Source: an uncultured Candidatus Babeliaceae bacterium
GTDB lineage: Bacteria; Babelota; Babeliae; Babelales; Babelaceae
Length of the DNA: 64,000 bases
Assembly: GCA_963704655.1 (NCBI GenBank)
Contig: OY969927.1
Span: 384,001 to 448,000 of the forward strand
Direction: 5' to 3'
The stretch's first letter is position 1. The number at the start of each line of letters is the position of its first letter. The position numbers and the translations under genes were made by a program. The notes under the pieces were generated by a model. That model was not told where the DNA came from. It ran no database searches and worked only from the letters and a program-made list of their open reading frames with translations. Below, one piece after another: positions 3 through 63,488 of this stretch.

Positions 3-1361
3 AGTGTATTTTTTCAACATCTTTATTCACAAGAGCCAAATACGGTTTTAGGTATCGTTTCAGACCCCAATGCTACAATTGCTTATCCAGATGCTATAAC
101 TATAACACCCGATGGGCTCTATGCCTATGTCGCTAATGAGAAGCCAACACTAAGCATAGTTGATCTAAATCCTTTAAATCCGACTTATAACTCAGTAATT
201 GGTGTAGTATCTGGTCTTAATTCCCCTAGCGCTTTAGCAGCAACATTTGATAACAAATACCTGTATGTTGCTAATTATTATGACGGTGTGAGTATAGTAG
301 ATAGAGCAACCAACACGGTAACCGGTGCTGTTGAAGATACAGGTTTTCCTTTTCTTGGTCCATATAGCGTGGCAATAACACCTAATAATCTCTATGCCTA
401 TGTCGCTAATTATGGTATTAACTTCACTGCCGGTACCACAGTAAATATTGTTGATTTAGATCCATTATCTACCAACTACAACAAAGTTATTGGTATTGTA
501 TCAGATCCTAGTGATACTTTTAATGGCCCTAGCGCAATAGCGATAACACCAGATGGGCTTCATGCCTACGTTGCTAATTATGGCTTTCCAGACGGTGGTA
601 CCACAGTAAGTATTGTTGATCTAGATCCATTATCAACCGACTACAACAAAGTTATTGGTATTGTATCAGATGCTGGCAATACTATACAAACACCAAATGC
701 AATAACAATAACGCCCGATGGAACGCGTGCCTATGTTGCAAATAATAATGGAAACACTGTCAGTATTATTGATTTAGATCCACTATCTGACAATTACAAT
801 AGAGTTATTGGCACAGTATTAGACCCTCTTTCTACCATCAATGCTCCTACTGATGTGGCAATAACACCTGATAATCTTTATGCCTATGTTGCAAATAATA
901 ATGGAAACACTGTAAGTATAGTAAGTTTAGAAAACAATACGGTAATAGGGACGGCGATAGATCCAAATTTCACTCTTAATGGACCATACTGGCTTGATGT
1001 AACACCTAATGGCAGCTATGTATATGTGGCTAATATTAGTGGCAGCAGTGTGAGTATTATAGGTTCAGATATAGTAAATAATTTCAGCGGATGTAAACGA
1101 AAGAATCTTTTTCTGAATCAAGTTGATAATTACAATCATCTTACCTGGTCTGCTCCAAATAACTTTATTGCAGTGAGTTACCAAATATATCGAGATGCAG
1201 CCCTTACGCAGCTTGTCGCTACAGTTCCTGCTTCGGGAATATTGCAATACGATGACCATAATAGAAACCCAAATGTGAATTATGGTTATTATATAGTTGG
1301 TGTAAATGCTTTAGGTGCTCAATCAGGTTTTGCAGCAACCACTGTTACACAATCTTGTTAA
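3..1361 (+). CDS. YVTN/YncE-type beta-propeller repeat surface protein with C-terminal FN3-like domain (5'-truncated by window edge)
   Basis: Frame is open from nt 3 (SVFFQHLYSQEPNT...), upstream of the listed GTG at 288. Repeated AITPDG-x-AYVAN-x-TVSIVD units; C-terminal LTWSAP...YQIYRD...YYIVGVN. Confidence 0.85.
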   Translation, partial: SVFFQHLYSQEPNTVLGIVSDPNATIAYPDAITITPDGLYAYVANEKPTLSIVDLNPLNPTYNSVIGVVSGLNSPSALAATFDNKYLYVANYYDGVSIVDRATNTVTGAVEDTGFPFLGPYSVAITPNNLYAYVANYGINFTAGTTVNIVDLDPLSTNYNKVIGIVSDPSDTFNGPSAIAITPDGLHAYVANYGFPDGGTTVSIVDLDPLSTDYNKVIGIVSDAGNTIQTPNAITITPDGTRAYVANNNGNTVSIIDLDPLSDNYNRVIGTVLDPLSTINAPTDVAITPDNLYAYVANNNGNTVSIVSLENNTVIGTAIDPNFTLNGPYWLDVTPNGSYVYVANISGSSVSIIGSDIVNNFSGCKRKNLFLNQVDNYNHLTWSAPNNFIAVSYQIYRDAALTQLVATVPASGILQYDDHNRNPNVNYGYYIVGVNALGAQSGFAATTVTQSC

Positions 1362-3087: not shown

Positions 3088-3115
3088 CCGCTCATCCTGA
3101 GCCTGTCGAAGGGTT
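3088..3115. repeat. REP-like element
   Basis: CCGCTCATCCTGAGCCTGTCGAAGGGTT, nearly the reverse complement of the core of the 4670-4708 copy. Confidence 0.75.
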
Positions 3116-3288
3116 AGCGAATTTAAAAAATATAAATTTCTTATCTTATTAGTTTACACAAACATCGTTTAATAATTAAGGGGCATTAAAGAATTTTTAA
3201 GATATATCTATAAGAATTGTAGTAAAACTTTATATACTTATATTAAGTAAGAAAAATTAGAGAAATATTATGCGACGCAAAAGGGGTA

Positions 3289-4575: not shown

Positions 4576-4708
4576 GCCGTCCCTCGATACTAAACTTCGA
4601 CTTCGCTCAGTTTCACTCGGGATGAGCGGCGGCAGACAGGCGACTGTTGTAAATAACAATCACTTTCAATTCCCAACCCTTCGACGGGCTCAGGATGAGC
4701 GGTGGGAA
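4576..4708. repeat. Two REP-like elements upstream of the recombinase
   Basis: 4576-4630 (CCCTCGATAC...CTTCGACTTCGCTCAG...GGGATGAGCGG, nested) and 4670-4708 (CCCTTCGACGGGCTCAGGATGAGCGG). Confidence 0.75.
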
Positions 4709-4880
4709 AATTGGTCAATAAAGACCAGAAAAAGTATAAAACTTTAAAGAATGCGATTGATTAGCGATAAAATCGATCTGTGGCTGCAAATCTTTTAAAA
4801 TGGCACCCCAATTGTGTATAATGCTACTTATATACAATATGCGTCAATTTTGACGATCTAGACAGTTTAAAGGAGCTGTA

Positions 4881-5846
4881 ATGAAGAATAATACTATTGC
4901 GTTAACAAGTAGCCGTGAACTTACTCACGAGCAGGCGTTATTTTTAAAAAAGGAAGCCGTTTGGAAAAACTTGGCCGACATCACCGTCGCGCAAGCGGTC
5001 AAGCAATGGCTGGCTACCCTCAAAAGTATAACAGCAAAAAATTACACAAGTGGCATTAAACAACTTGCCAAGTGTAAGCTGATAGACATGAAACTTTCCC
5101 TACAGCTTTTTTCACTTATTAACCATGATGCCATTATAGACCAGATAAAAATTTTACCCGAACTTTCTGAATGCTCCAAGCAAGCGCGCGCGGCGTGTTA
5201 TATTTCGTTCACCCGTTTTTTATCCAGAAGAACGCAGGGAGTTATACCAAAAGCAACCCCAAGTCGCGAAGGTGTTTCAAAGACTTTTTATAGGGTACGG
5301 GATAAAGTGGCTACCGAGGCAATGACCCGTGCGCAATGGACAGACTTTTTGGATGAACTCCACAAAATCAATCCACGGGATTGCCTTATTGCAAAGGTTA
5401 TTTTACAAGGGGGCAAAAGGTTATCAGAAGTTTTAAGCCTGACAACTGATAAAATTGATTTTATTAAACGTGAGATTACTTTTAGACAATCAAAGACAAA
5501 GGGCTATGAAAAAGAGACGGTAATAACGTATCCACAAACTATACTTGATGAACTGAAAAGTTATCTTGATGGTCGGCAAGGTCTTGTCTTTGTAACCAAT
5601 AAATTTAAACCGATTATGCCTAACCAACTTGCCGTTACCTTTGAAAGAGCCGGTGTCGCTGCCGGAGCACCCTTTAAGGTTACCCCGCACGTCCTGCGCG
5701 CATCGGCAATCACCTATTTAAAATTGTCCGGATATTCTGATAGTGATATCATGAAAATTTCAGGGCATGCCAACTCAGCCATGGTTAATGCTTACGACAA
5801 AAGCGACCGTGCACTTAATATTAGTAAAAAAGTGAGTTTAGTATAA
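4881..5846 (+). CDS. Tyrosine recombinase/integrase, chlamydial plasmid Pgp8 (pGP8-D)-like
   Basis: Catalytic R (GGKR), HxLR (TPHVLRA), GH and Y (AYDKS). Motifs QARAACYISFTRFL, LQGGKRxSEVLSL, ITYPQ and SDSDIMKxxGHA match my recollection of Chlamydia pGP8-D. AAGGAG RBS. Confidence 0.9.
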   Translation: MKNNTIALTSSRELTHEQALFLKKEAVWKNLADITVAQAVKQWLATLKSITAKNYTSGIKQLAKCKLIDMKLSLQLFSLINHDAIIDQIKILPELSECSKQARAACYISFTRFLSRRTQGVIPKATPSREGVSKTFYRVRDKVATEAMTRAQWTDFLDELHKINPRDCLIAKVILQGGKRLSEVLSLTTDKIDFIKREITFRQSKTKGYEKETVITYPQTILDELKSYLDGRQGLVFVTNKFKPIMPNQLAVTFERAGVAAGAPFKVTPHVLRASAITYLKLSGYSDSDIMKISGHANSAMVNAYDKSDRALNISKKVSLV

Positions 5847-5888
5847 ATTAATTACACGACGCATAAAATATAGATTGGAACATATTTT

Positions 5889-5927
5889 TAAAAGTGGCGC
5901 ACGAGGATCGACCCAGCGCCACTTTTA
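5889..5927. terminator. Hairpin/terminator after the recombinase
   Basis: 12-bp inverted repeat TAAAAGTGGCGC/GCGCCACTTTTA. Confidence 0.6.
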
Positions 5928-6058
5928 TATTGCGGCCCGACCTGCAAATAGCTAAAATGATGTAAATTATTAAAAATTTTTCTCAAAAAACTCTATCTTC
6001 TCATAGGTCACCCTTGCTATAATTATTAATAGGAAATAAATTTTATAAGGGGGATATC

Positions 6059-7783
6059 ATGAAAATAAAATTACTTTCACTACTTACGTTACTTGCAGCG
6101 CTGCAGATTCATGCGACAGAAGTTGCACCGCAAGCTGCAATTCCAGCAATTACTTTTACTGCATATCTCCATACTCCCCTTTTTACTCTTAAGGGCCATA
6201 CACAGAGTGAAAACTCGAGTGAAAACCCGAGTGTAAACTCTATCGTATTTTCACCTGATGGTACAAAAGTTGTTACTGCTTCAGATGATAAAACTGCAAA
6301 AATCTGGGATGTTGCAACGGGTGAATTACTGCACACGCTTAAAGGTCATACAGGCTATGTGTGGTCAGCCGCATTTTCACCTAATGGCAACTATATTGTT
6401 ACTGCTTCAGCAGACGGTACTGTAAAAATCTGGGATGTTGCAAATGGTACATTAATAAGAACTCTTGAGGGTCATACAGATTGGGTGATATCAGCCGCAT
6501 TTTCACCCGATAGCAGTAAATTAGTGACTGCATCCAATGATAGAACTGCAAGAATTTGGGATGCTTCAACTGGTCAAATACTACACATTCTTAAAGGGCT
6601 TGTATTATCTGCTGCATTTTCTCCTGATGGCACCAAAGTGGTGACTACATCACTAGATGGATCAACAGGAGTTTGGGATGCACGAGTTTGGGATGCACAA
6701 ACCGGTACATCCATCTTTTCACTTGCAGGTGCTTCTTGGGCAAATGATGCCGCTTTTTCACCAGATGGCACTAAAATAGTTACCGCTGTTGGAGATAACG
6801 CAAAAATCTGGGAAGTGGAAACTGGTGCTTTAATCCGCACTCTTGTAGGGCATACGCAAGGGGTAAGCTTTGCCGCCTTTTCGCCAGATGGCAGGTATGT
6901 TGTTACTGCTTCTTGGGATAATACAGCAAGAATCTGGGATGTTGAAACTGGTCAACTACAACACACACTTAAAGGACATACATATAAGTTAATATTCGCG
7001 ACATTTTCAGCCGATGGGAACTATGTTGTTACTGCTTCTTGGGATAATACTGTACGTCTCTGGGATGCTTCAAATGGACAAGAAGTATTACGAATTAGCA
7101 CACGTTCATATGGTAATGAAGAGATTATTTGGAAACCAATAGACAAAAATCATGTAATAAGTAAACCAGGAAATGATTTATCCTCCGCTGCATTTTCACC
7201 TGATGGCACCAAAGTAGCTACTGGTTGTTATAATGGCACGATAAAAATTTGGGATATTACTCAAGCGCTATTTCAGTATGAAAAATTTATAACTATAAAA
7301 TCTATTACTGATTTAAAAGAAAAATTTGAAAACATAAAAGATAAAATCTACAAGAAATTGCGCGTATTAAACACAATGTTTGCTGATCCATTATTAACTG
7401 AAAGTGAAAAGAAAAATATACATACTTTTGCTCAGAGACTGAATGGATTAAACATTTTGGGAACACAAAAGAGTAGAGAAGGTGGTATTAGAGGCGCCAT
7501 AGATACTCGGCTTATAGCTTTAAATAACTTACCAATGGAATTAGAAAAAGCCAATAATGCCCGACAGTTTGCTGATTTTAAAAAGAAGATGCTTGATATC
7601 AACAGTGATTTACAAAAAATTGAAACCCGAATGCGCGAAATCTTTCAAGATTCTCAAGTAGTTGAGCAACGCTACCAAGATGCTCTCAAGCAGAGAAGAT
7701 TTAAGGGGACCGCATATTTAGGAATGAGAAAACCCAAATCAGCTCAGGCTCAGGCGGCTCAAGAAGAACCGGAAATAGATTAA
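6059..7783 (+). CDS. Secreted WD40 protein 1 (8 repeats, coiled-coil C-terminus)
   Basis: Signal peptide MKIKLLSLLTLLAALQIHA; GH...FSPDG...TAS.D.TAKIWD repeats. Confidence 0.92.
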   Translation: MKIKLLSLLTLLAALQIHATEVAPQAAIPAITFTAYLHTPLFTLKGHTQSENSSENPSVNSIVFSPDGTKVVTASDDKTAKIWDVATGELLHTLKGHTGYVWSAAFSPNGNYIVTASADGTVKIWDVANGTLIRTLEGHTDWVISAAFSPDSSKLVTASNDRTARIWDASTGQILHILKGLVLSAAFSPDGTKVVTTSLDGSTGVWDARVWDAQTGTSIFSLAGASWANDAAFSPDGTKIVTAVGDNAKIWEVETGALIRTLVGHTQGVSFAAFSPDGRYVVTASWDNTARIWDVETGQLQHTLKGHTYKLIFATFSADGNYVVTASWDNTVRLWDASNGQEVLRISTRSYGNEEIIWKPIDKNHVISKPGNDLSSAAFSPDGTKVATGCYNGTIKIWDITQALFQYEKFITIKSITDLKEKFENIKDKIYKKLRVLNTMFADPLLTESEKKNIHTFAQRLNGLNILGTQKSREGGIRGAIDTRLIALNNLPMELEKANNARQFADFKKKMLDINSDLQKIETRMREIFQDSQVVEQRYQDALKQRRFKGTAYLGMRKPKSAQAQAAQEEPEID

Positions 7784-9300
7784 AGGGACACTATGAAGAT
7801 ACAATTACTTTCACTACTTACGCTACTTGCAGTGCAGCAGATTCATGCGACAGAAGTTGCACCGCAAGCTGCAATTCCAGCAAGTACTTTTACCGCGTAT
7901 ATCGATATTCCCCTTTTGACCCTTAAAGGACATGCCCAAAGTCTACGTTCAGCAGCTTTTTCACCAGATGGCACTAAAATAGTGACTGCTTCAGCTGATG
8001 CAACTGCAAAAATCTGGGATGCAAAAAATGGCGCATTACTCTTTACTCTTGAAGGGCATACAGCTTCTGTAAACGCAGCGCAATTTTCACCTGATGGTAA
8101 GTATATAGTCACGGCTTCAGCTGATAATACTGCAAAAATTTGGAGTGTTGAAACTGGCCAATTACTGCACACGCTTGAAGGGCATACAAAGCCGGTATCA
8201 TCAGCCTCATTTTCACCTGATGGTACCAAAGTCGTTACTGCTTCACTAGATGGATCAACAAGAGTTTGGAATGTTGCAACTTGGCAATTACAATACACTC
8301 TTCAGGGCCATACAAAGAGGGTATCCTCAGCACAATTTTCACCAGATGGCACTAAAATAGTTACAGCTTCTGCTGATGAAACTGCAAAAATCTGGGATGC
8401 TTCAACTGGTCAAGTACTACACATTCTTAAAGGTCATCCAGATGGGGTCTATTCTGCTTCATTTTCACCTGATGGCAAATTTATTGTTACTATCTTCCAT
8501 AAAGCGGCAAAAATCTGGGATGCCCAAACTGGTGCTTTAATAAGAGATCTTATAGGTCATACAGAATTTGTACTTTCAGCAGCTTTTTCACCTGATGGCA
8601 GGTATGTTGTTACTGCTTCATGGGATACTACTGCAAAAATCTGGGATGTCCAAACTGGTAGATTTATAATAACTCTTCACCATACAGGTTGGGTAAACTC
8701 TGCCTCTTTTTCTCCTGATGGCACAAAAGTTGTTACTACTTCAACGGATGGTACTGCAAAAATCTGGGATGTTACCCAAGAGCTATTTTATTATGAAAAA
8801 TTAATAACTTCAAAATCTATTGATGCTTTAAAAGCAAAATTTGAAAATATTAGAAATGAAATTTATGAAAAACTGCACGTATTGAACGCAATGTTTGGTG
8901 ATCCTGTATTAACTGAAGATTTTGACAAGAAAAGAATACACGAACTTGCTCAAGAACTTTATAAATTAAACATTTTGGGAACACAAAAGAGTAGAGAAGG
9001 TGGTATTAGAGGCGCCATAGATACACGGGTTATAGCTATAAATAACTTACCAATGGAATTGGAAAAAACTAATAATGCCCGCCAGTTTGCTGATTTTAAA
9101 AAGAAGATGCTTGATATCAACAGTGATTTACAAAAAATTGAAACCCGAATGCGCGAAATCTTTCAAGATTCTCAAGTAGTTGAGCAACGCTACCAAGATG
9201 CTCTCAAGCAGAGAAGATTTAAGGGGCCGCATATTTAGGAATGAGAAAACCCAAATCAACTCAAGCTCAGGCGGCTCAAGAAGAACCGGAAATAGATTAA
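7447..9300 (+). repeat. Near-identical ~337-bp direct repeat (7447-7783 and 8965-9300) encoding the C-terminal module of WD40 genes 1 and 2
   Basis: Sequence aligns base for base with a few substitutions and one 1-bp deletion. Confidence 0.95.
7793..9238 (+). CDS. Secreted WD40 protein 2 (7 repeats, coiled-coil C-terminus); tail frameshifted, would otherwise end at 9300
   Basis: Same signal peptide; 1-bp loss at GGGG 9223-9226 relative to gene 1. Confidence 0.9.
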   Translation: MKIQLLSLLTLLAVQQIHATEVAPQAAIPASTFTAYIDIPLLTLKGHAQSLRSAAFSPDGTKIVTASADATAKIWDAKNGALLFTLEGHTASVNAAQFSPDGKYIVTASADNTAKIWSVETGQLLHTLEGHTKPVSSASFSPDGTKVVTASLDGSTRVWNVATWQLQYTLQGHTKRVSSAQFSPDGTKIVTASADETAKIWDASTGQVLHILKGHPDGVYSASFSPDGKFIVTIFHKAAKIWDAQTGALIRDLIGHTEFVLSAAFSPDGRYVVTASWDTTAKIWDVQTGRFIITLHHTGWVNSASFSPDGTKVVTTSTDGTAKIWDVTQELFYYEKLITSKSIDALKAKFENIRNEIYEKLHVLNAMFGDPVLTEDFDKKRIHELAQELYKLNILGTQKSREGGIRGAIDTRVIAINNLPMELEKTNNARQFADFKKKMLDINSDLQKIETRMREIFQDSQVVEQRYQDALKQRRFKGPHI

Positions 9301-9314
9301 AAAAAATGGACAGT

Positions 9315-10949
9315 ATGAAGATAAAATTACTTTCACTACTTGTACTATTCGCGGTGCAGCAGATTAATGCGACAGAAGTTGCACCGCAAGCTACAATTCC
9401 AGCAATTACTTTTACTGCATATCTCCATACTCCCCTTTTTAACCTTAAAGGCCATACAAGTTTGATATTCTCAGTAGCCTTTTCACCAGATGGTAAATAC
9501 ATAGCCACAGCTTCAGCAGATGGAACTGCAAAAATATGGGATGCTCAAACAGGTGCTTTAATAATAACTCTTGCTCGTGAAGGAAATACAGAAAGTGTAT
9601 ACTCAGCAGCTTTTTCACCAGATAGCACCAAAGTAGTTACTGCAGAATGGGATGATACTGCAAAAATATGGGACATTACCCAAACGCTCATCAAGTATGA
9701 AAAAATTAAAAGAGAAGCTGCTACTTCAAAGGGTAGTACTACAAAAACTTGGGTTGCAGTGACGGGAAATCCGCTCTATATTCTGCAACACAAAGGCTCG
9801 GTAAACTCAGCACAATTTTCACCTGATGGGACCAAAGTTGTGACTGCTTCATGGGATAACACCGCAAAAATCTGGAATGCTCAAACTGGTGCTTTAATAA
9901 TAACTCTTGAGGGTCATACAGCTTTGTTAGACATTGCCATATTCTCACCAGATGGTACAAAAATTGTTACTGTTTCACGGGATAAAACGGCAAAAATCTG
10001 GGATGTTGCAACTTGGCAATTACAATACACTCTTGAAGGTCATACAGATTGGGTGAATTCAGGCTCATTTTCACCCGATAGCAGTAAATTAGTGACTGCG
10101 TCCAATGATAAAACAGCAATGATTTGGGATGTTACAACGGGTGAACATTTAAACATCCTTAAAGGGCATACAGATTCTGTAAACTCTGCTTTATTTTCAC
10201 CAGATGGCAAATACATAGCAACAGCTTCAGTAGATGGCACTGCAAAAATCTGGGATGTTGCAACTTATGCTTTAGTCTGCACATTTAAGGGGCATAAAGA
10301 TCATGTAAGCTTTGCACACTTTTCACCCGATGGAAAATATATTGTTACTGCATCCAATGATGGAACTGCAAAAATTTGGGATGCCGCAACGGGAACTTTA
10401 ATCTGGACGCTTAAGGGGCATACAAATAGAGTTATAGAAGCACTATTTTCACCTGATGGGACAAAAGTAATGACTGCTTCATGGGATAATACTGCCAAAG
10501 TTTGGGATGTTACCCAAGCGTTATTTCAGCATGAAAAAATTAAAACACTAAAAACTATTGATAATTTACAAAAAATATTTGAAGGAATCAGATATCTGAT
10601 TCATAAGAAATTAGCTATACTCAGCAACTTATTTGCCGATGAATCGGTATCCCCAGAGCTTAAAAAGAAGTTAATGGAAATTGGTAAAAGACTTAATGGA
10701 TTAAACATTAATGGTGCCAAGAATGCAAGAGGCAATGCGATAAATAAAGAATTAGAAGCACATTTAGAAAAAACCAATAACGCGCAACAACTTGCTGTTA
10801 TTAAAAAACGCATAAACACTCTAGACCAAGAATTACAACGCATTCAAACCAGACTGGAAGCAATTAATCAAGAATCTCAGGCTATTGAAGAAACTATACC
10901 AGAAGATGTTAGACAGCGGGCTGCGAAAGCATATGGACAGCGCACTTAG
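9315..10949 (+). CDS. Secreted WD40 protein 3 (8 repeats, coiled-coil C-terminus)
   Basis: Probable start is the in-frame ATG at 9315 (MKIKLLSLLVLFAVQQINA) with GGA RBS, matching the paralogues. Confidence 0.9.
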   Translation: MKIKLLSLLVLFAVQQINATEVAPQATIPAITFTAYLHTPLFNLKGHTSLIFSVAFSPDGKYIATASADGTAKIWDAQTGALIITLAREGNTESVYSAAFSPDSTKVVTAEWDDTAKIWDITQTLIKYEKIKREAATSKGSTTKTWVAVTGNPLYILQHKGSVNSAQFSPDGTKVVTASWDNTAKIWNAQTGALIITLEGHTALLDIAIFSPDGTKIVTVSRDKTAKIWDVATWQLQYTLEGHTDWVNSGSFSPDSSKLVTASNDKTAMIWDVTTGEHLNILKGHTDSVNSALFSPDGKYIATASVDGTAKIWDVATYALVCTFKGHKDHVSFAHFSPDGKYIVTASNDGTAKIWDAATGTLIWTLKGHTNRVIEALFSPDGTKVMTASWDNTAKVWDVTQALFQHEKIKTLKTIDNLQKIFEGIRYLIHKKLAILSNLFADESVSPELKKKLMEIGKRLNGLNINGAKNARGNAINKELEAHLEKTNNAQQLAVIKKRINTLDQELQRIQTRLEAINQESQAIEETIPEDVRQRAAKAYGQRT

Positions 10950-10967
10950 AGAATTAAAAGGACACTT

Positions 10968-12590
10968 ATGAAAATAAAATTATTTTTACTACTTACAATA
11001 CTGGCAGTGCAGCATGCACATGCAGCAGAAGTTGCGCCGCAGGTTGAAGCACCACAGGTGATTATAGTAAACACCCCTGTTCTTACTCTGAATGATCCAA
11101 ACAATTTTGAAACAGCCTCATTTTCACCTGATGGTAGATATTTTGTTGCTACTGCAGGTTTGGCTGCACAAATTTGGAGCGTTGAAAATCGTGCATTAGT
11201 ACGCACTCTTGAAGGCCAGACAAAGATGGTCACATCGGCTCGATTCTCTCCCGATAGCAGATATATTGTTACTACATACTGGGATGGCGCTACTAAAATC
11301 TGGGATGCTGCAACTGACAAAGAAATAAGACCTCTTATAGGTCATACATTTTGGGTATGGAGAGCGGCATTTTCACGCGATGGAAGATTTATAGTTACCG
11401 CTAGCATGGATGGCACTGCAATTATTTGGGAAGTTGCTACTGGTAAGAAGATTCGCACAATAACAATCGATCGAGATATTGCTTATTCAGCCACGTTCTC
11501 ACCTGATGGTACAAAAGTTGCTATTGCTTTAAGTAATAATATCGCACAAATTTGGGATATCAAAACAGGTCAACAACTTACCACACTTATCGGCCATACA
11601 AGCGAGGTAGTAGATGTTGCATTTTCACCTGATGGCACTAAAATTGCTACTGGTTCAGCAGATCACACGATAAAAATTTGGAATCCGCAGACTGGTCAAA
11701 TAATCCGTACACTTAATGGCCATACCGGAGCTATAAACTCTATTGAGTTTTCACCATATGGCAACTATGTGCTTTCTGCATCTTATGATGGCACTGCAAG
11801 AATCTGGGATGTTGAAACTGGTCAAGAAGAAATTCGAATCACTGGCCATACTGACCACGTGAATTCGGCCTCATTTTCACCTGATGCAAACAAAGTAATC
11901 ACAGCCTCAAATGATAAAACCGCAAAAATGTGGGACATCAGAAACTTGCTCATTAATGAAAAAAAAGGACCGTTTAAAAATCTGATTTCCTATTTAAAAC
12001 AAACACTTGATAATCTCAAAAAAGAATTTTTTAACGAAGTTAATAAAGGTGCACGTACAGAGTTGCCGGGCACAAACCCGGAAGAAACTGCACATATACC
12101 TGAAATGCCATCGTCACATGCTTGGCGAGTTTGGCAGGCGGATCCAAACAACAAAGGCTCGATGCCTGCGCAAGAAGTGATACCATTCCTATGGAAAAAA
12201 AGAAAAAGTTTAGTTCAACAGTTTAATGCTTTAAAAGTGAGAATCGATGATTTTGAAAGAGCAGTTGATGCGGCTCAAATGGTAAATGAGCTTGAAACTA
12301 TCAGAAATACGGGCAAACAAATTATGACCGATTTAGAGCACGTTAAAAATATAGGTGTCGCTCAGTTTATAAAAGTTGTGCGTATTAAACATATGATTAA
12401 TGAGCTACAAAACCAGTTAGCCGGTTTGCCAGATTTACAAGAAAGAATTAATGGACTTGATGATGCTATTGAGCACTCTCAAACTGAAGGTGAGATTATA
12501 AGAGTCACTCAAGAATTAGAAATAATTAAAAACCAGATCCCCCAAGTACGAACAAGTACAAAGCGTAAAGCAGAGGAGATTTCTCAATGA
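10968..12590 (+). CDS. Secreted WD40 protein 4 (7 repeats, distinct helical C-terminal domain, KRK tail)
   Basis: Signal peptide MKIKLFLLLTILAVQHAHA; WD40 repeats. Confidence 0.92.
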   Translation: MKIKLFLLLTILAVQHAHAAEVAPQVEAPQVIIVNTPVLTLNDPNNFETASFSPDGRYFVATAGLAAQIWSVENRALVRTLEGQTKMVTSARFSPDSRYIVTTYWDGATKIWDAATDKEIRPLIGHTFWVWRAAFSRDGRFIVTASMDGTAIIWEVATGKKIRTITIDRDIAYSATFSPDGTKVAIALSNNIAQIWDIKTGQQLTTLIGHTSEVVDVAFSPDGTKIATGSADHTIKIWNPQTGQIIRTLNGHTGAINSIEFSPYGNYVLSASYDGTARIWDVETGQEEIRITGHTDHVNSASFSPDANKVITASNDKTAKMWDIRNLLINEKKGPFKNLISYLKQTLDNLKKEFFNEVNKGARTELPGTNPEETAHIPEMPSSHAWRVWQADPNNKGSMPAQEVIPFLWKKRKSLVQQFNALKVRIDDFERAVDAAQMVNELETIRNTGKQIMTDLEHVKNIGVAQFIKVVRIKHMINELQNQLAGLPDLQERINGLDDAIEHSQTEGEIIRVTQELEIIKNQIPQVRTSTKRKAEEISQ

Positions 12591-13897
12591 AAATAAAATT
12601 GCTTTCATTACTTATACTTGCGGTAATAACCGCAAAGCACATACACGCGTCTGAAAAATTGGAAGAGTTAAAAGAGAAAGCGGTGTATGGGAATATGATG
12701 TCGCTTGAAATCCCCACTATATCACTTATAGGTAACCAGGGTGCGGTCTTTCCTGCCTCTTTTTCACTTGATGGCATGCAAATAGTTACCGCTGGAGATG
12801 ATGGGATCGTAAGAATCTGGGACGCGCAAACGGGAAAATTACTCCAAACGCTTACTGGCCATACAATGGCAATAGGTTCGGCGGTCTTTTCACCAGATGG
12901 TGATCAAGTAGTCTCTGTTTCGCTTGATGGTACAGTACGTATATGGAACGCTCAAACGGGCACATTACTACAGGAAATTATAGTTTCTGCTGGGGCATTA
13001 TTTTCGGTAGCATTTTCACCTGATGGCACAAAAATAGCTGCTGCAGGTGCTGATGGAAATGTAAGAATCTTTAATGCAAAAAATGGTGAATTATTACAAG
13101 TAATTACTGGCAATACCAAAGAGGTAACTTCAGTGGCCTTTTCAGCAGATGGTGAATGTATACTCACTGCAGGCGCTGATGGCAGCATAAGAATGTGGAA
13201 TATTGAAACGGGTGAAGAAAGACTCACGCTTACGGGACGAGATACGAGCCCAGTATATTCGGCCTCTTTTTCATCTGATGATGCGTACATAGTTTTTGCT
13301 GGCGCAGATGGAATTGTAAGAATCTGGGATGTTGCCAAGCACACATTAGTAGGAAAACTTATTGGCCATGCCAAAGCAATATCTTCAGTGGCATTTTCAG
13401 ATGATAGCCGATTAATTGTTTCGGCTTCAAAGGATAATACAGCAAAAATCTGGGATGTCCAAACAGGGCAATTAATCCGCACCCTTAATCTTCAAGACAA
13501 CGTCAACTCAGCCTCTTTCTCGCCTGATGGCACGAGCATCGTTACTGCGTGCCAAGATGGTAGCGTAACGATTTGGGATATCAGCAAAACTGTTAACTGG
13601 GTAGAGGATGGAAAACTTGTTTGCCCGATATGCACCATGCGATTCCCTTTTAGAAATAATTTTAATTCACACATGTTCTTTGAGCATCCACTAGCTTCTG
13701 CTAAAAACCCTGAGGGAAAGCCTAAGTTGGCGCGCGCGAAAAAAAAGAAGGCTACGCCCAAGTTAAAAACAATTGGCAAAAAGAAACCTGCGCCCGCTGC
13801 ACCCATAACAGAACCGGTAATAGAGCCGATAGTTCAAGAAGCACCTGCATTAACTCCAGAGCAAGAGGAAGAACTCATTAAAGAGCTTCTTATATAA
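12587..13897 (+). CDS. Secreted WD40 protein 5 with C2H2 zinc finger and Lys-rich tail
   Basis: 7 WD40 repeats; CPICTMRFPFRNNFNSHMFFEH (C-x2-C-x12-H-x4-H); KKKK...KKKP. Confidence 0.9.
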   Translation: MKIKLLSLLILAVITAKHIHASEKLEELKEKAVYGNMMSLEIPTISLIGNQGAVFPASFSLDGMQIVTAGDDGIVRIWDAQTGKLLQTLTGHTMAIGSAVFSPDGDQVVSVSLDGTVRIWNAQTGTLLQEIIVSAGALFSVAFSPDGTKIAAAGADGNVRIFNAKNGELLQVITGNTKEVTSVAFSADGECILTAGADGSIRMWNIETGEERLTLTGRDTSPVYSASFSSDDAYIVFAGADGIVRIWDVAKHTLVGKLIGHAKAISSVAFSDDSRLIVSASKDNTAKIWDVQTGQLIRTLNLQDNVNSASFSPDGTSIVTACQDGSVTIWDISKTVNWVEDGKLVCPICTMRFPFRNNFNSHMFFEHPLASAKNPEGKPKLARAKKKKATPKLKTIGKKKPAPAAPITEPVIEPIVQEAPALTPEQEEELIKELLI

Positions 13898-13928
13898 ATA
13901 GAATAAGTTTTATTAAAAAAGGGACAGT

Positions 13929-15212
13929 ATGAAGATAAAATTACTTTCACTACTTTCGTTACTGGCAGTTCAGCAGATTCATGCGGCAGAAGTTGCACAA
14001 GTGTCACAAGGCACTTCAGCGTATGCCATTGCGCAGGCGCTGCGGCCATTAGCTATCATTAATAACAATGGTGAAATCAATAGCGCAGCAATTTCACCCG
14101 ATGGCAAATACATAGTTACCACGTCTCTTAATACAGCACCAAAAATTTGGAATGCTCAAACTGGTGAATTCATCAGGGAGCTTTCTGCCCGGAACACAAT
14201 GCAAGCAAGATTTTCACCTGATGGCAAAAAAGTTGCTGTTATCAGTAGCGATATAATAATTTTTGATACCGAAACAGGAAATGTAGAAATGCGCTTAGCT
14301 TTCAGATTTTCTCACCCAGGCGCTGGCATTAGTACAAAAAGTTTGGCATTTTCAGCCGATGGAACTAAAATTATCAGCGGTGAAGAATATGGTACAAAAA
14401 TTTGGAATACCGCAAATGGTAAAGAAATTATACATATACTGTCAGGAGATACAGACGCTGTAGCATTTTCACCTGATAGTAATCAAGTTCTGACTTCTTC
14501 TAAAAAAAGCGAACGCCAAAAGCGGGGGATTGAAAAAACAGTGATGCTTTGGGATGCTTCAAATGGCCAATTAATACATACTTTTGATGGTCAACATTGG
14601 GGCGCTTCATTTTCTCCTGATGGAAGTCAAATAATTATGTGCTCAGATAGTAATGTTGCCGAAGTTTTTAATACCCAGGCGCTCAATAGAACTCATTGGC
14701 TTAAAGTGGTACCTCCCAGCAATATTTTCACTCCTGAGGAAATGCAATCAGCCGCCTTTTCTCCTGACGGTGAGATAGTTACTGTATCTTTAGCAGAGCA
14801 TGCGCGATTGTGGGATGCTCAAACTCGCAAGATAAAATCAACATTTGATACTTCAACCCCCAATGCTGAAATGAGCTCTATACATCCAGATTCATTTGCA
14901 CGTGATGGTAAGTTTGTTCCTCTTTTAAGGATAAAACCTCATTATGACTTAGCAAATATAGTAGAAGTTTTTAATATCGGTCAACTAGAAATTAAAGAAT
15001 ATTTCAAGAATAAATTATTACCTCTTAAGCAACAATCACTTTTAGTAACGTTGGACGCGCTTTCACGCCAAAAAAATGGCCGGCCCATTAAAAAAAGTGA
15101 TCTTGTTGCCGACCCAAGACAAGATACATCAGCATTATTCAAAGGAATGCCACAACGCGTTATAGATGCCTTAAAGCGTGTATATAAAATTGATGAGGAT
15201 GTTTTTATATAA
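13929..15212 (+). CDS. Secreted WD40 protein 6 (divergent repeats) with C-terminal helical module shared with the 61851-63335 protein
   Basis: Signal peptide; about 7 degenerate FSPDG blades; PLKQQSLLV...LFKGMP...YKID. Confidence 0.9.
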   Translation: MKIKLLSLLSLLAVQQIHAAEVAQVSQGTSAYAIAQALRPLAIINNNGEINSAAISPDGKYIVTTSLNTAPKIWNAQTGEFIRELSARNTMQARFSPDGKKVAVISSDIIIFDTETGNVEMRLAFRFSHPGAGISTKSLAFSADGTKIISGEEYGTKIWNTANGKEIIHILSGDTDAVAFSPDSNQVLTSSKKSERQKRGIEKTVMLWDASNGQLIHTFDGQHWGASFSPDGSQIIMCSDSNVAEVFNTQALNRTHWLKVVPPSNIFTPEEMQSAAFSPDGEIVTVSLAEHARLWDAQTRKIKSTFDTSTPNAEMSSIHPDSFARDGKFVPLLRIKPHYDLANIVEVFNIGQLEIKEYFKNKLLPLKQQSLLVTLDALSRQKNGRPIKKSDLVADPRQDTSALFKGMPQRVIDALKRVYKIDEDVFI

Positions 15213-15320
15213 AAACTGATTTCTTATCCTCAATAGCTTTGAAACTCTTTCTTTTTAATAGTTGCCCATACTATAATTATAATAACAATAGGAAATTATT
15301 TTTTTTAAAGAGGGCGACTT

Positions 15321-16664
15321 ATGAAGTTAAAATCACTTTCACTACTTATATTACTAGCGTTTCAACATGCACATGCAGATGTGGTTATAGTAACAACACC
15401 TGCTCTTACCCTGAATAGCCGAACAACATTGCAAGCAGCATCATTTTCTCCTGGTTCTCCTGGTGGCACTCAAATAGTCACAGCTGGCGGTAAATTCGCC
15501 GAAACATGGGACGCTGCAACTGGTAAGTTATTGGATACTTTTATAGGACATGCTGATACTATTACTTCAGCACAGTTTGCACCTTATGGCACTGAAGTTA
15601 TTACTGCGTCCAATGATAAAAAAGCAATGATTTGGGATGTTAATTCCCCTCTAGGACTGCCAATGGAGCTTAATCATAAAGCCGCGGTAAGATCAGCAAC
15701 ATTTTCAAACCATGGCTACACAGTTCTTACTGCTTCAGGCAACGATGTTATACTTTGGCAGGCTGGAAGAGGTAAAGAAATCTATAAATTTTCGCCTTCT
15801 CCTCATCGAATAAATTCAGCGTCATTGTCACCTGATAGATACAAAGTCGCTATTGCCTTAGAGGATAATTCGGTACAAATTTGGAATATGGATACCGATC
15901 GACTATTTCAAGTATTTCAAGGTCGTTCTGACGCCGAAGCATTTTCACCTCAACTATTTAAAACATTAACCGGCCATACAAGCGCGGTCCTCTCTGTTGC
16001 ATTTTCACGCGATGGTAAATACATAGTTACTGCTTCAGCAGACGGTACTGCAAAAATCTGGGAGGTGGAAACTGGTGCTTTAATCCGCACTCTTGTAGGG
16101 CATACGCAAGGGGTAACCTCAGCAGAATTTTCACCGAATGGCAAGTATGTGCTTTCTGCTTGCGGTGATGGCGAAGTAAGAATCTGGGACATTGAAACTG
16201 GTCAAGACGTAATTCAAATCATGGCGCATGCTGGCCGGGTGAATTCGGCACAATTTTCACCTGATGGTACTAAAATTGTTACTGCATCTAATGATAAAAC
16301 CGCAAAAATTTGGGATGTTGGCCAAATACTCAAAGATTATGAAGCAAAGCCAAAAGAACTCAAAAAGCCTCAGGCGGTTCCCCAAGTATTAACACCACAA
16401 CAAGAAATTGATCGCATTTTAACTCTACAAGCTAACTTTGATAAACTAAATTTTTCCAATTTTTCAAAAGATGAAATCCAAAGAAAAAAAGAGGATTTAG
16501 CATATAAAATTTTTAATCTTGTACCAGGTTCATCGCAGGATGAAATAAAAAAAGTTTACAAGAAATTAGCCCTCCAACTTCATCCTGATAAAAATCCAGA
16601 TCCTCAAGCAAAGCCTGCATTTCAGATAGTTAATAATGCTTACTCAGCACTTACTGTTAAATAA
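15321..16664 (+). CDS. Secreted WD40 protein 7 with C-terminal DnaJ (J) domain
   Basis: WD40 repeats; EIKKVYKKLALQLHPDKN...AFQIVNNAY. Confidence 0.92.
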   Translation: MKLKSLSLLILLAFQHAHADVVIVTTPALTLNSRTTLQAASFSPGSPGGTQIVTAGGKFAETWDAATGKLLDTFIGHADTITSAQFAPYGTEVITASNDKKAMIWDVNSPLGLPMELNHKAAVRSATFSNHGYTVLTASGNDVILWQAGRGKEIYKFSPSPHRINSASLSPDRYKVAIALEDNSVQIWNMDTDRLFQVFQGRSDAEAFSPQLFKTLTGHTSAVLSVAFSRDGKYIVTASADGTAKIWEVETGALIRTLVGHTQGVTSAEFSPNGKYVLSACGDGEVRIWDIETGQDVIQIMAHAGRVNSAQFSPDGTKIVTASNDKTAKIWDVGQILKDYEAKPKELKKPQAVPQVLTPQQEIDRILTLQANFDKLNFSNFSKDEIQRKKEDLAYKIFNLVPGSSQDEIKKVYKKLALQLHPDKNPDPQAKPAFQIVNNAYSALTVK

Positions 16665-16710: not shown

Positions 16711-17545
16711 ATTTGTCTTTTAATTCCGGATCAGATAAATCTAGATGATCATCTATAACTTTAAAACGCTCAATTGCAAGCGCTTTGCCCGATTTTTTAT
16801 CGATAGTAAGTATAATGCCGTGCATATGATACGGGCCTTCAAGCTCGACTTCAAACTTAACCGGCATTTGGGTTAATAAGTTGTGCAAGATCGCATGGCG
16901 TTTCATGCCGATCATAGAATTAATCGCGCCGCCCATGCCAATATCAGAAATATAGGCTGTGCCTAACGGAAAAATTCGTTCATCTGCAGTTTGCACATGC
17001 GTGTGCGTGCCATAAACGCAACTTACTTGTCCATCAAGAAAATAGCCCAGCCCCATCTTTTCTGAGGTAACTTCAGCATGCATATCAACAATGATACAGT
17101 TTGTTTGCGGCTTTAAAAACATTATAGCAGATTCTGCAGCTTTAAAAGGGCAACTTAAAAGCTCGCGCATAAATACGCGCCCCTGAACATTAATAACGCC
17201 GACCGTTACACCGGCAACCGTAAAGGTGGTAACCCCAACCCCCGGCGTTGACGCAGGAAAGTTTGCCGGACGCAACAGATCTTTATGACTCGAAAGGTAA
17301 CTATAAATATCACGTTTTGCAAAAATATGGTTTCCACTGGTAACAACGTTAGCGCCGTAGTGCTTTAAAAAATCAACAATGGCCGGAGTGATCCCGCGGC
17401 CATCACTTGCGGTATTTTCACCATTAACGATAACACCATCAATTGCATATTTTTGTTTTAATGCAGAAAGGTGTTTTTTGAACATTGCACGACCTGGTGT
17501 TCCCATAAGGTCGCCAATACAGAGTATCTTTAAATTATCGTGCAT
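16709..17545 (-). CDS. ymdB: YmdB/TIGR00282 family metallophosphoesterase
   Basis: IGD, NGEN, TSGNH, LLRPAN, DMHAEVTSEK, GTHTHVQTAD; follows rny. Start chosen at ATG 17545. Confidence 0.93.
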   Translation of the reverse strand: MHDNLKILCIGDLMGTPGRAMFKKHLSALKQKYAIDGVIVNGENTASDGRGITPAIVDFLKHYGANVVTSGNHIFAKRDIYSYLSSHKDLLRPANFPASTPGVGVTTFTVAGVTVGVINVQGRVFMRELLSCPFKAAESAIMFLKPQTNCIIVDMHAEVTSEKMGLGYFLDGQVSCVYGTHTHVQTADERIFPLGTAYISDIGMGGAINSMIGMKRHAILHNLLTQMPVKFEVELEGPYHMHGIILTIDKKSGKALAIERFKVIDDHLDLSDPELKDK

Positions 17546-60852: not shown

Positions 60853-61827
60853 ATGGAAAAAATATCTACACTATTTTCGCCACATCTTATGATGATGCTA
60901 CTCATATGCATAAACTATAATGCTCATACCCAAGCAATGGCAGATGCAACAGATAAATATGCACTTTTTATGGTAGATGATCAGATTAATAGAGAAAAAA
61001 CACTTTCAACACTCTATCCACATGAAGTTCTTGAATTGTATAAGAAATTTGAAAACGACCGGGTAAAGATCACCTATGATAAAAAAGATAAAAAATACCA
61101 GATAATCTTTGATGGCAAAGTGAGTACTTCCAAACGAGTAACGCTGAACCCAGATGCAACATTACTTGCTTATGAGTATAAAGATGACCGCTGGAATTAC
61201 CCTGCAATAACATTACTAGGATTACTAACAAAAAAGCGTAAATCGTATCACAACTTATTTGATAACAATCTTGAAGCCATTCGTTTTTCACCAGATGGAA
61301 AGTTTCTTGGCCTTGTTTCACCTACGCAAGTTTCAATCTTAGAGATAGATAATGAAAAAAATTCGAAATTAAAATTTAACCTATTCAGTAACAATGCAGT
61401 TGGAAAGTTATATTTTTTTGATATACAATTTGACCAAAATAGTACTCAAGCAGCAGTTGCCACACCTGACAAAACGGTTATTTTTGATGTTAAAAATTAC
61501 ATAGGTAAACGAAGATATATAGAAACATTAGATTCCATAGATACAAGAATTTATCCGCTGCTTGCCTTTAGTTCAGATAACGGTAAAAGTATAATTACTA
61601 ATACCGAAACGTTCTTGATTGTTGACCATGCACATGCTGATTTTAAATATAGTTCAATACGCGATATATTACGTTCTTTAGAAAGGCCCATAGATTTGCA
61701 GTATATTTTTGCAACGGCTACCCCTTTTGAATTTCTAGGAGTAAGAAAATCTATAGATGAGCAGCCTGAAGAATTTGTATACCTAACTGTAAGCACAATA
61801 GATGATCCATTGCTTCTACCAGATTAG
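60853..61827 (+). CDS. Secreted degenerate beta-propeller protein
   Basis: AAGGA RBS, signal peptide, LNPDA/FSPDG/FDQNS/FSSDN blades. Confidence 0.75.
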   Translation: MEKISTLFSPHLMMMLLICINYNAHTQAMADATDKYALFMVDDQINREKTLSTLYPHEVLELYKKFENDRVKITYDKKDKKYQIIFDGKVSTSKRVTLNPDATLLAYEYKDDRWNYPAITLLGLLTKKRKSYHNLFDNNLEAIRFSPDGKFLGLVSPTQVSILEIDNEKNSKLKFNLFSNNAVGKLYFFDIQFDQNSTQAAVATPDKTVIFDVKNYIGKRRYIETLDSIDTRIYPLLAFSSDNGKSIITNTETFLIVDHAHADFKYSSIRDILRSLERPIDLQYIFATATPFEFLGVRKSIDEQPEEFVYLTVSTIDDPLLLPD

Positions 61828-61850: not shown

Positions 61851-63335
61851 CTATACGCATATTTTTTTATCAATCTTATATAGTGAAATCATAGCTTTAA
61901 TAAGATATTCTGGCATGTCTTTAAAAAGCTCTTTAATATCAACATCTTCATCAAGATAACCATTAAGATATCTTTTATCAATTATTTTTCCAGCACGTTC
62001 TGCAGCTAGCTGTTCAAAGACAGTAAATAAGCAACGTTGTTTAAGAGATAAAAAATTATTTTTTTTATAATACGCTACTATTAATGCTGCAAAGTTGAAT
62101 ATGCTTACCTTAAAATCTTGAGTATCCTGAGAGTCTTTTGGTAAAATGACAAGTTGATTATTTTCCCCATTGGTAAATGAAATAAATTTTTTAGCCTCAA
62201 CAAAAGGGATTTCGAAAATTTTTCTTGCCGTTGAAATATCAAAACCTTGTATCCCATTAGTAACACATACATGAAAAACATACGAATTATCGCGGCTTAG
62301 ATCTACATAATAATCCCCATTTTTCTTTCCTAACGGAAACATTTTTTTCACTTTACTCGTTTGAGTCTCAACTAATAGAGCGAACGGCATACGCGGCACA
62401 AGAAAAAATTTACCATCAGGAGAAAAAAGTCTATCCCCTGAATAACGTGCTTGCTCAATCATTTCTAAATCGTGCACTAGTGTCCTATTTTCAATATTCC
62501 ATAATCGAAAAAAATCTAAGCCATTAGGATCTAAACCAAGCGAAATCAAATATTTTCCACAAGAACTAAATTCGATCTGTGAGGTGCACGTGTCAGGCTT
62601 ATCTACAAAAAGCATATCAGATCTGTCTTTAGATCGTTCTAAAGTGCATACCAGATTTTTCGTTATAGTATCATATATAAAAATTTTTCTTTCACCTGAG
62701 TAAGTAAGTGCAAAGCGAAACCCTTTTGGGCTATACTGCGCACAATTAATAATCCGACTAATTTCATCTTTCTTGCGCTTAACAAAAGGCAATTGTTTAC
62801 CAGACCATTGATCAAAAAAACCACTTGTATCTGGATGATGAGACCTCGGAATATCTGAACCAATTTCATGAGATGTAGGTGAAATAAAAACCTCAGATTT
62901 AGTTGGATGAAAAGCGATTATTTGGGGAACACATCCCCAATAATATGGGTTTATCATCTTTTCATAAAGTATTTCATGAGATCTTGTATTTACACAATGA
63001 ATTTGATCAACACCAGACTTCCTAGTTGATATATATAATAAAGAACCCGTTGGATTTAATACTATATCTTCTATATCAAAGCGTTCTTTACCGTTAAACT
63101 TCAAAAATCCTTCAGTTGGTGTCAAACGCTTTCCCGTATCACTATCAAACCTCCACACCTCATTGTGAGCAGCAACAATGTGCTCTTGAGCATTTTTAAC
63201 CGCTAGTATTTTTTTTATTGAGCTTGCATCAAAAGTATATAAGGGCTTAGTATCTAAATTATTTAAAGAATAGCTGTTTTGTATACAAGCAAAACCACCT
63301 AACAAAAAATTAAAAAAATATTTAAGCATTTTCAT
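61851..63335 (-). CDS. Secreted degenerate WD40 protein with C-terminal BC-box-like module
   Basis: Signal peptide from ATG 63335; LNPTG/FHPT/YSPKG/FSSCG/FSPDG blades; SLKQRCLFTV. Confidence 0.8.
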   Translation of the reverse strand: MKMLKYFFNFLLGGFACIQNSYSLNNLDTKPLYTFDASSIKKILAVKNAQEHIVAAHNEVWRFDSDTGKRLTPTEGFLKFNGKERFDIEDIVLNPTGSLLYISTRKSGVDQIHCVNTRSHEILYEKMINPYYWGCVPQIIAFHPTKSEVFISPTSHEIGSDIPRSHHPDTSGFFDQWSGKQLPFVKRKKDEISRIINCAQYSPKGFRFALTYSGERKIFIYDTITKNLVCTLERSKDRSDMLFVDKPDTCTSQIEFSSCGKYLISLGLDPNGLDFFRLWNIENRTLVHDLEMIEQARYSGDRLFSPDGKFFLVPRMPFALLVETQTSKVKKMFPLGKKNGDYYVDLSRDNSYVFHVCVTNGIQGFDISTARKIFEIPFVEAKKFISFTNGENNQLVILPKDSQDTQDFKVSIFNFAALIVAYYKKNNFLSLKQRCLFTVFEQLAAERAGKIIDKRYLNGYLDEDVDIKELFKDMPEYLIKAMISLYKIDKKICV

Positions 63336-63488
63336 TTTTCCACCCACCATTAAAATACCCTTTTCAGTACCATTTTGGCTATGTTTATTTTTTTTTATCT
63401 GCATACTCTCACAAAACACTGTACGCATAATTTTTTTTATTCTATCTTATGACGCATAAGCGCATCATGCGTATCATAAGGAGAGCTC

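Follow-up and report, generated by a model that had tools for sequence, protein, structure and literature searches.

Array structure and propellers

The genome of an uncultured Candidatus Babeliaceae bacterium, a single contig of 1.298 Mb (OY969927.1), contains seven co-oriented genes (g1–g7) for signal-peptide WD40 proteins directly downstream of a Pgp8-like tyrosine recombinase gene. The locus was analysed in the 64,000-bp stretch at positions 384,001–448,000 of the contig (the window, to which coordinates refer unless genome positions are given). The array lies on the + strand at 6059–16664 and the recombinase gene (4881–5846, +) ends 212 bp before g1. An earlier, sequence-only reading, which put this distance at about 210 bp, regarded the array as a polymorphic effector library, in which a variable propeller selects a host target and a swappable tail recruits host machinery. 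The seven open reading frames (ORFs) on which it was based were confirmed, except that the true start of g3 is the ATG at 9315 and not the TTG at 9180. The signal-peptide pattern described as common to all seven proteins was found in these seven only, among 2427 six-frame ORFs.

In g1 (6059–7783), the signal peptide is followed by 8 WD40 repeats and a helical (coiled-coil) tail of ~175 aa. The g2 gene (7793–9238), whose product starts with MKIQ, encodes 7 repeats and a helical tail near-identical to that of g1 at the 3′-end, and g3 (9315–10949) has 8 repeats and a more distant (~40%) copy of the g1/g2 tail. Seven repeats were also counted in g4 (10968–12590), which ends in a unique helical-looking tail of 216 aa terminating in KRKAEE, and in g5 (12587–13897), which carries a single C2H2-like finger followed by a Lys-rich and then a Pro/Glu-rich tail. 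The g6 product (13929–15212) consists of the signal peptide, a short N-terminal helix, a diverged 7-bladed propeller and a helical domain of ~75 aa, while g7 (15321–16664) combines 7 repeats with a C-terminal J-domain having an intact HPD motif. The intergenic spacers are 9, 76, 18, −4, 31, and 108 bp.

Pfam WD40 (PF00400) matches above the cut-off were obtained for all seven proteins, and a home-made repeat hidden Markov model built from the array detected 8, 7, 8, 7, 7, 6, and 7 repeats in g1–g7, respectively. AlphaFold models were confident propellers (mean predicted local distance difference test score, pLDDT, 85.8 for g6 and 81.8 for g2), and the g6 model matched 7-bladed WD40 structures (Z 32.2, root-mean-square deviation 2.4, 273 aligned), in agreement with the propellers of 7–8 blades recognized at first sight.

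The binding face was analysed in the 24 ungapped canonical repeats out of 50, none of which came from g6. The framework positions of the repeats were near-invariant, and variation gathered at GH+2, +3, +5, and +8 and around the invariant Asp. For four top-face codons, a home-made codon model applied to this array gave an omega of 2.03 versus 0.17 for the rest (p 0.003), and the four-residue combinations were distinct in all 24 repeats. According to the available text of PMC1805685, the corresponding four codons are under diversifying selection in the fungal HET-E/HET-D repeats; the mapping between the two sets is our own, with the invariant Asp as its anchor. Only 4 usable repeats came from the second WD40 array of this genome, too few to count. 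The constraint on the propeller binding face is certainly relaxed, and positive selection on the top-face codons is likely but not secure.

Tail modules

The tails of g1–g3 proved to be homologous and helical, as the sequence-only reading had proposed, and the KRK motif of the separate, helical-looking domain assigned to g4 was also recovered. No relative of the g1/g2 tail outside this genome was found in a protein search covering lengths of 264–842 aa, and the g1–g3 tail was confined to this genome among the 201 searched (200 other genomes of the order). The C2H2 finger ascribed to g5 fits the pattern C-x2-C-x12-H-x4-H, but its PF00096 score of 17.5 bits is below the Pfam cut-off of 25.2. The J-domain of g7 was fully supported (PF00226, E 8.8e-17, 61.4 bits versus a cut-off of 27.8); the match covers profile positions 2–54 of 63 and the protein stops after helix III. 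A second WD40-J protein is encoded elsewhere in this genome and signal-peptide J-domain proteins recur in the genus, while WD40-J fusions also occur in other bacteria, including free-living ones, and in algae.

The tail of g6 was modelled with confidence as a helical domain (pLDDT >90). It was found in 6 of the 41 family genomes searched (this genome, four of the five congeners, and one other). It was also detected in 24 cluster representatives, a number of which are weak repeat matches, and is common to many WD40 proteins of the genus. It had no Pfam match and no match in the ESM Atlas, the best hit among sequences of solved structures had an E of 0.21, and fold searches with the whole protein returned propeller matches only, since the propeller dominated the query. 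The label of a BC-box-like module, given to this tail earlier, had to be abandoned: none of 10 tails matched either the relaxed or the strict form of the BC-box consensus, [APST]Lxxx[CAS]xxx[AILV], and no SOCS, F-box, or VHL Pfam match was detected in 12 members of the g6 family at E ≤ 1. The g6 tail is an undescribed, uncharacterised helical domain of genus-wide occurrence and, by consensus and profile, not a BC-box. As a separate observation, two WD40-plus-tail units of the 1178-aa protein P0022 are connected by a segment of SKP1/BTB-like appearance on visual inspection, a hint that the g6 tail family may be coupled to ubiquitin-ligase adaptors in distant relatives.

Mosaic evolution of the array

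Comparison of the paralogues and their relatives revealed several pairs in which the identity of the propellers does not go along with that of the tails. The g6 protein and its metagenomic relative P0002 are 86–89% identical in the tail and 32% in the propeller. The g2 propeller is 63% identical to that of g3 and 59% to that of g1, while its tail is 81% identical to that of g1 and 40% to that of g3; the g2 and g3 propellers are, at the same time, 57–63% identical to three propellers of congeners that bear g6-type tails. Between g1 and g2, dS was 0.14 for the first 40 codons; in the propeller, where the alignment is register-dependent, it reached 0.81, and in the tail 0.23 (tail vs. propeller, Fisher p 2e-6). 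Their nucleotide identity climbs to 98–100% in the last 45 codons and the tail region includes an exact match of 144 bp, while no canonical repeat pair of the two genes exceeds 79%. In the relatives, 0 to 8 repeats lie between the conserved N-terminal helix and the g6-type tail, the lower extreme being P0015 (locus L125 of genome G003), which has the signal peptide, the helix and the tail with zero WD40 repeats between them. Orphan tail fragments were also seen 3′ of WD40 genes in G004 and G002. At the level of sequence, these data establish that propellers and tails have separate histories and, together with the hypervariable top-face codons, they bear out the earlier idea of a variable propeller joined to a swappable tail.

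Comparison of the locus among related genomes showed that the content of the array varies among congeners and that close WD40 paralogues occupy unrelated chromosomal positions in them. The graded identity inside the coding sequences points to unequal crossing-over and gene conversion, for which a RecA-type mechanism would be responsible. The tandem family probably grows and shrinks by such exchanges between repeats and between near-identical gene junctions. Different tails have come to sit on related propellers, and propellers have been rebuilt between conserved ends. The binding-face residues vary fastest, probably under diversifying selection (seen in this array and not in that of G004).

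Export and possible function in the host

Each array protein begins with a tripartite signal peptide, in which a basic start is followed by a hydrophobic core and an AxA-like end, and lacks a cysteine in the first 30 residues (no lipobox cysteine) as well as any later membrane segment or anchor. The genome encodes two secretins, and the proteins would leave the periplasm most likely via the type II/secretin machinery or in vesicles. In the host they might act as adaptors, the propeller binding a target and the tail bringing the function, most clearly in the predicted recruitment of Hsp70 by g7. Since the periplasm lacks Hsp70 and ATP, the export of an intact J-domain speaks in favour of a host compartment. 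The two secretins, the exported J-domain, and the intracellular lineage make delivery into the host plausible. Published Dependentiae are described, in the portions of the reports available, as intracellular in protists, with many signal-peptide repeat proteins, tandem duplications and type II secretion parts (PMC4378268, PMC4776705, PMC6561590).

The earlier proposals on host machinery were sustained only in part. Recruitment of a host chaperone is compatible with the intact g7 J-domain, but ubiquitin-ligase recruitment lost its basis together with the BC-box. Similarly, basic motifs suitable for nuclear targeting are present (KRK of g4), but such motifs were not enriched among exported proteins when two patterns were applied genome-wide; a third, narrow pattern occurred in 4/532 signal-peptide proteins versus 0/557 others (p 0.057).

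An alternative is that the proteins are exported but kept at the bacterium (in the periplasm, on the surface or in vesicles) as adhesins or scaffolds, with structural tails and with variable faces that bind molecules of prey, of the host surface or of competitors. Sec signals alone reach the periplasm only, and 532 of the 1089 genes (~49%) pass a crude home-made signal-peptide rule, thus the signal peptide is not specific to effectors; the occurrence of WD40-J fusions in free-living bacteria and the lack of enrichment of tails resembling nuclear localization signals fit this explanation as well. However, it leaves a J-domain with an intact HPD, of a kind recurrent among signal-peptide proteins of the genus, without a periplasmic Hsp70/ATP partner, and the absence of both a lipobox cysteine and a membrane anchor does not suit retention at the cell. 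Furthermore, upstream of the recombinase in the congener G002 (locus L014), two tandem signal-peptide proteins are arrays of C2H2 zinc fingers of eukaryote-like type, joined by TGEKP-type linkers; such proteins would be sensible mainly in a eukaryotic cell. Considering these data, we judged retention at the bacterium unlikely, and delivery of the array proteins into the host remained the preferred explanation.

The recombinase and its dif-like site

The recombinase (PF00589, 321 aa) has the catalytic R, HxxR, H, and Y of tyrosine recombinases, read from motifs as R180, H270, R273, H296, and Y305. It is 50–58% identical to chlamydial plasmid integrases including pGP8-D, with which it also grouped in a quick tree. 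Upstream of the gene, a dif-like site (4811–4838, +) is composed of two 11-bp arms and a 6-bp spacer with an ATAA-N6-TTAT core. Ten of its 11 arm positions are symmetric and it is the only such site in the genome, where 2 sites reach at least 9. A look-alike at genome position 726,146, outside the window, has 3 mismatches and a broken core and is possibly due to chance. The site recurs upstream of six recombinase homologues in kin, including integrated mobile elements, and is also present on L056 and L057, a Parachlamydiaceae contig, and two of the three chlamydial plasmids examined. The site was missing at the 43%-identical copy of G001 (C29), at L058, and on the Simkania plasmid, and it was not found in G005, whose contig starts inside the recombinase gene.

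The replication origin was placed at a cluster of 8 DnaA boxes (genome positions 1,043,955–1,044,178) on the GC-skew minimum. The dif-like site, which like its terminus position had escaped the sequence-only reading, is 6.2 kb from the antipode of oriC, which falls within the array, and 9.8 kb from the GC-skew maximum. The genome has only two tyrosine recombinases, the second being a XerC-like gene at 530 kb; an FtsK motif is present, and a loose scan gave no convincing canonical dif near the terminus. The recombinase was detected in 7 of 41 genomes, this one counted (5/5 congeners, 1/19 other family members, and 0/16 members of other families), and in all five congeners it is syntenic, near proS and/or ymdB-rny. 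Other genera of the family have, according to the same quick tree, a different clade of single recombinase, often in the same neighbourhood, which lies at 0.86–0.97 of the ori-ter distance in 4/4 single-contig relatives checked; no shared palindrome or cognate site was found upstream of these enzymes. This clade, characterized by an HSLRHT motif, was seen near the terminus in many Babeliaceae genera (L061–L079) and is the only integrase-family match in five genomes.

Based on these features, a housekeeping role at the terminus is most likely for the Pgp8-like recombinase, which would resolve chromosome dimers as a one-subunit Xer/dif system. The enzyme and its single palindromic site may have been acquired from chlamydial-type plasmids or integrative elements and have settled at the terminus in this genus. 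Dimer resolution by Pgp8 did not appear in the literature listing searched, supplements and subscription papers being outside its scope.

Relation of the recombinase to the array

The adjacency of the two elements had raised the question of whether the enzyme acts on the array, and the result was largely a refutation. No copy of the dif-like 28-bp site occurs within or after the array, the only one being upstream of the recombinase; integron attC-type repeats were sought only as copies of the 28-bp site between the array genes, and not with a dedicated attC model, and none was present. The 3′-ends of proS, the recombinase gene, and ymdB were not duplicated around the array. Downstream of the recombinase, G004 has five WD40 genes, G001 and G002 unrelated exported genes, and G005 none; the contig of G003 ends 1.2 kb past the recombinase, hence four congeners could be assessed. 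WD40 genes therefore adjoin the enzyme in one of the four, which does not support a general association of Pgp8-like recombinases with such arrays. Further recombinase copies lie on integrated elements of G004 and G009 without WD40 genes.

This genome has 51 tandem paralogue clusters by a home-made rule, of which g1–g7 is the largest, and two more WD40 arrays, each with its own signal peptides. Neither these two arrays nor the ~50 other tandem clusters adjoin a tyrosine recombinase, thus such arrays form without one. Four of the seven clusters of at least 4 genes are situated at ≥0.9 of the ori-ter distance, and the adjacency can be ascribed to the fact that both the recombinase and such clusters favour the terminus. 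The array and the recombinase would then be two terminus neighbours with different jobs, the latter not rearranging the former.

The dif-like site might also be an integration hotspot, at which the recombinase once brought the founding cargo from a plasmid or an integrative element (IMEX-like), followed by local expansion of the array. Such a history would agree with the flanks of the recombinase, which are different in each of the congeners examined and contain genes for exported proteins, and with the homologues accompanied by the same site on the integrated elements of G004 and G009 and on chlamydial plasmids. However, a circle that integrates should leave the cargo flanked by two sites or by hybrids, while one site was found; WD40 genes were absent from all mobile-element and chlamydial loci examined, close WD40 paralogues reside at unrelated chromosomal positions in congeners, and the GC content of the array matches that of the chromosome. 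We consider this history improbable. Least of all, and with very little probability left to it, the enzyme could be actively shuffling or excising the array genes as an integron- or shufflon-like cassette system: the 212-bp adjacency, the co-orientation, the WD40 array behind the same recombinase in G004 and the single WD40 gene adjoining an unrelated terminus recombinase in G023 are outweighed by the lack of sites between genes separated by spacers mostly of ≤31 bp, by NCBIfam scores far under the cut-offs (36.7 vs. 265 bits for the integron-integrase and 21.2 vs. 221 bits for the invertase model), by the conservation of the enzyme in the three of four assessable congeners that have no WD40 gene beside it, and by exchange points inside the coding sequence with graded identity, as homologous recombination predicts.

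Other features of the locus

Similar promoter-like stretches (TATAAT then AATAGGAAAT) precede g1 (6011–6058) and g7 (15266–15320), which suggests either two transcription units or a duplication of g7 together with its promoter. Compared with g1, g2 carries a one-base deletion near 9227, which ends the frame early. In the same assembly, a frameshift, probably an assembly indel, breaks rny (17535–19084, −) into two ORFs, whose products are recorded for 1 contig versus 3 for most array genes; for these reasons, the g2 deletion is possibly an assembly error as well. Four DNA sequencing runs gave only short, low-depth contigs, and no RNA dataset was listed.

A dispersed paralogue (61851–63428, −) encodes an exported propeller-like protein with a diverged propeller and the same tail domain as g6, and a further exported propeller-like gene is located nearby (60853–61827, +). 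To the left of proS, the gene at 288–1361 (+) is the last member of a five-gene tandem cluster of exported YVTN/lactonase-type propellers (genome positions 378,860–385,361), which is also at the terminus. A REP-like hairpin repeat occurs at 3089–3118 and ~4672–4701 and has 40 copies genome-wide at ≤3 mismatches.

Discussion

The results are best accounted for by a lineage-specific, homologously reshuffled birth-and-death family of exported WD40 effectors, which resides at the terminus beside a one-subunit dimer-resolution module, and we hold this explanation with moderate confidence. As for the proteins themselves, g1–g7 form a real, modular and fast-evolving family of probable effectors, a variant of the repeat-protein expansions of Dependentiae and Parachlamydiaceae. 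From the polymorphic effector library of the sequence-only reading, the modular architecture of variable propellers and diverse tails was retained, but not the recombinase as its engine or the BC-box recruitment.

Several points weigh against this explanation. The four-codon test was applied after the per-site values had been seen, a six-site top-face set tried first yielded an omega of 0.95, the top-face omega of the array of the congener G004 was 0.89 and not significant, and recombination among repeats can inflate such selection tests. The signs of delivery into the host (signal peptides and secretins) are indirect, and C-terminal basic motifs were found genome-wide in 20/532 signal-peptide proteins versus 15/557 others (p 0.39). 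Regarding the recombinase, the five-gene WD40 array of G004 lies at the same spot; the Pgp8-like enzyme is not the sole Xer, and the XerC-like gene kept at 530 kb may encode its partner or the true resolvase; the close homologues on integrated mobile elements imply that the recombinase may still be mobile.

A stronger version can be advanced only tentatively: a combinatorial effector library, in which propellers assembled repeat by repeat are under selection at the four surface codons that are also selected in fungal NLR receptors and in which J-domain, zinc-finger, coiled-coil, and g6-type tails are exchanged by recombination, beside a Pgp8 recombinase domesticated as a dimer resolvase. The g6-type tail may then be a new host-machinery adaptor or an export tag, and Pgp8 would receive its first assignable site and function. 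The recombinase-driven cassette system would have been the exciting version and is unsupported.

The many exported repeat proteins of Dependentiae have usually only been counted. At the sequence level, this locus shows that binder and tail evolve apart and that, in parallel with fungal immune receptors, the variability resides in the binding face. The locus also offers concrete test proteins, namely g7, by which Hsp70 recruitment can be examined, and g6 with its undescribed tail domain. The role predicted for Pgp8 is likewise open to direct testing, as the dif-like site is conserved at the terminus and is also found on chlamydial plasmids.

Comparison with known systems

No description of such a WD40 array was found in the literature searched, which did not extend to supplements and subscription papers. 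Babela massiliensis and other Dependentiae, which belong to the same lineage, have WD40, ankyrin and propeller proteins with signal peptides, for which an action on the protist host has been proposed, and lineage-specific DnaJ-domain proteins; the available text of these reports does not describe a mixed-tail WD40 array, the decoupling of propeller and tail or site-level selection, although the supplements may list such architectures (PMC4378268, PMC4776705, PMC6561590).

The recombinase module resembles XerS/difSL, XerH/difH, and the XerL/dif system of Legionellales, in which, according to the sections available, one tyrosine recombinase lies by a palindromic site near the GC-skew maximum, and there is a precedent for a plasmid-type Xer serving the chromosome (PMC5357621, PMC9765430). 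In contrast to these single-recombinase systems, the enzyme described here belongs to the chlamydial plasmid Pgp8 family and is accompanied by a XerC-like gene. Highly repetitive prokaryotic WD40 proteins share the formation of young propellers by repeat-level duplication, but those are mainly cytoplasmic signalling proteins of Cyanobacteria and Planctomycetes, and the accessible part of that work does not mention secretion (PMC5587647).

The NEX/PEX F-box, BTB, and RING families of the amoeba-associated Parachlamydiaceae likewise form tandem arrays of repeat binders joined to functional modules and undergo birth-and-death evolution; as far as the text at hand specifies, they differ in having LRR/TPR repeats, N-terminal ubiquitin-ligase adaptors and type III secretion (PMC4209131), while g1–g7 combine a WD40 binder with a C-terminal module and Sec-signal export, and no E3 adaptor was detected in them. 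With the fungal HNWD/NWD NLRs (Podospora HET-D/HET-E), the array shares WD40 repeats exchanged among paralogues, which are of high identity in the fungi, and the same four top-face codons that vary most, as given in the available text (PMC1805685). The g1–g7 repeats are, however, only ~60–70% identical in DNA, far less homogenised than those of HNWD, and the proteins have no NACHT domain but only signal, propeller and short tail, being exported and not cytosolic immune receptors.

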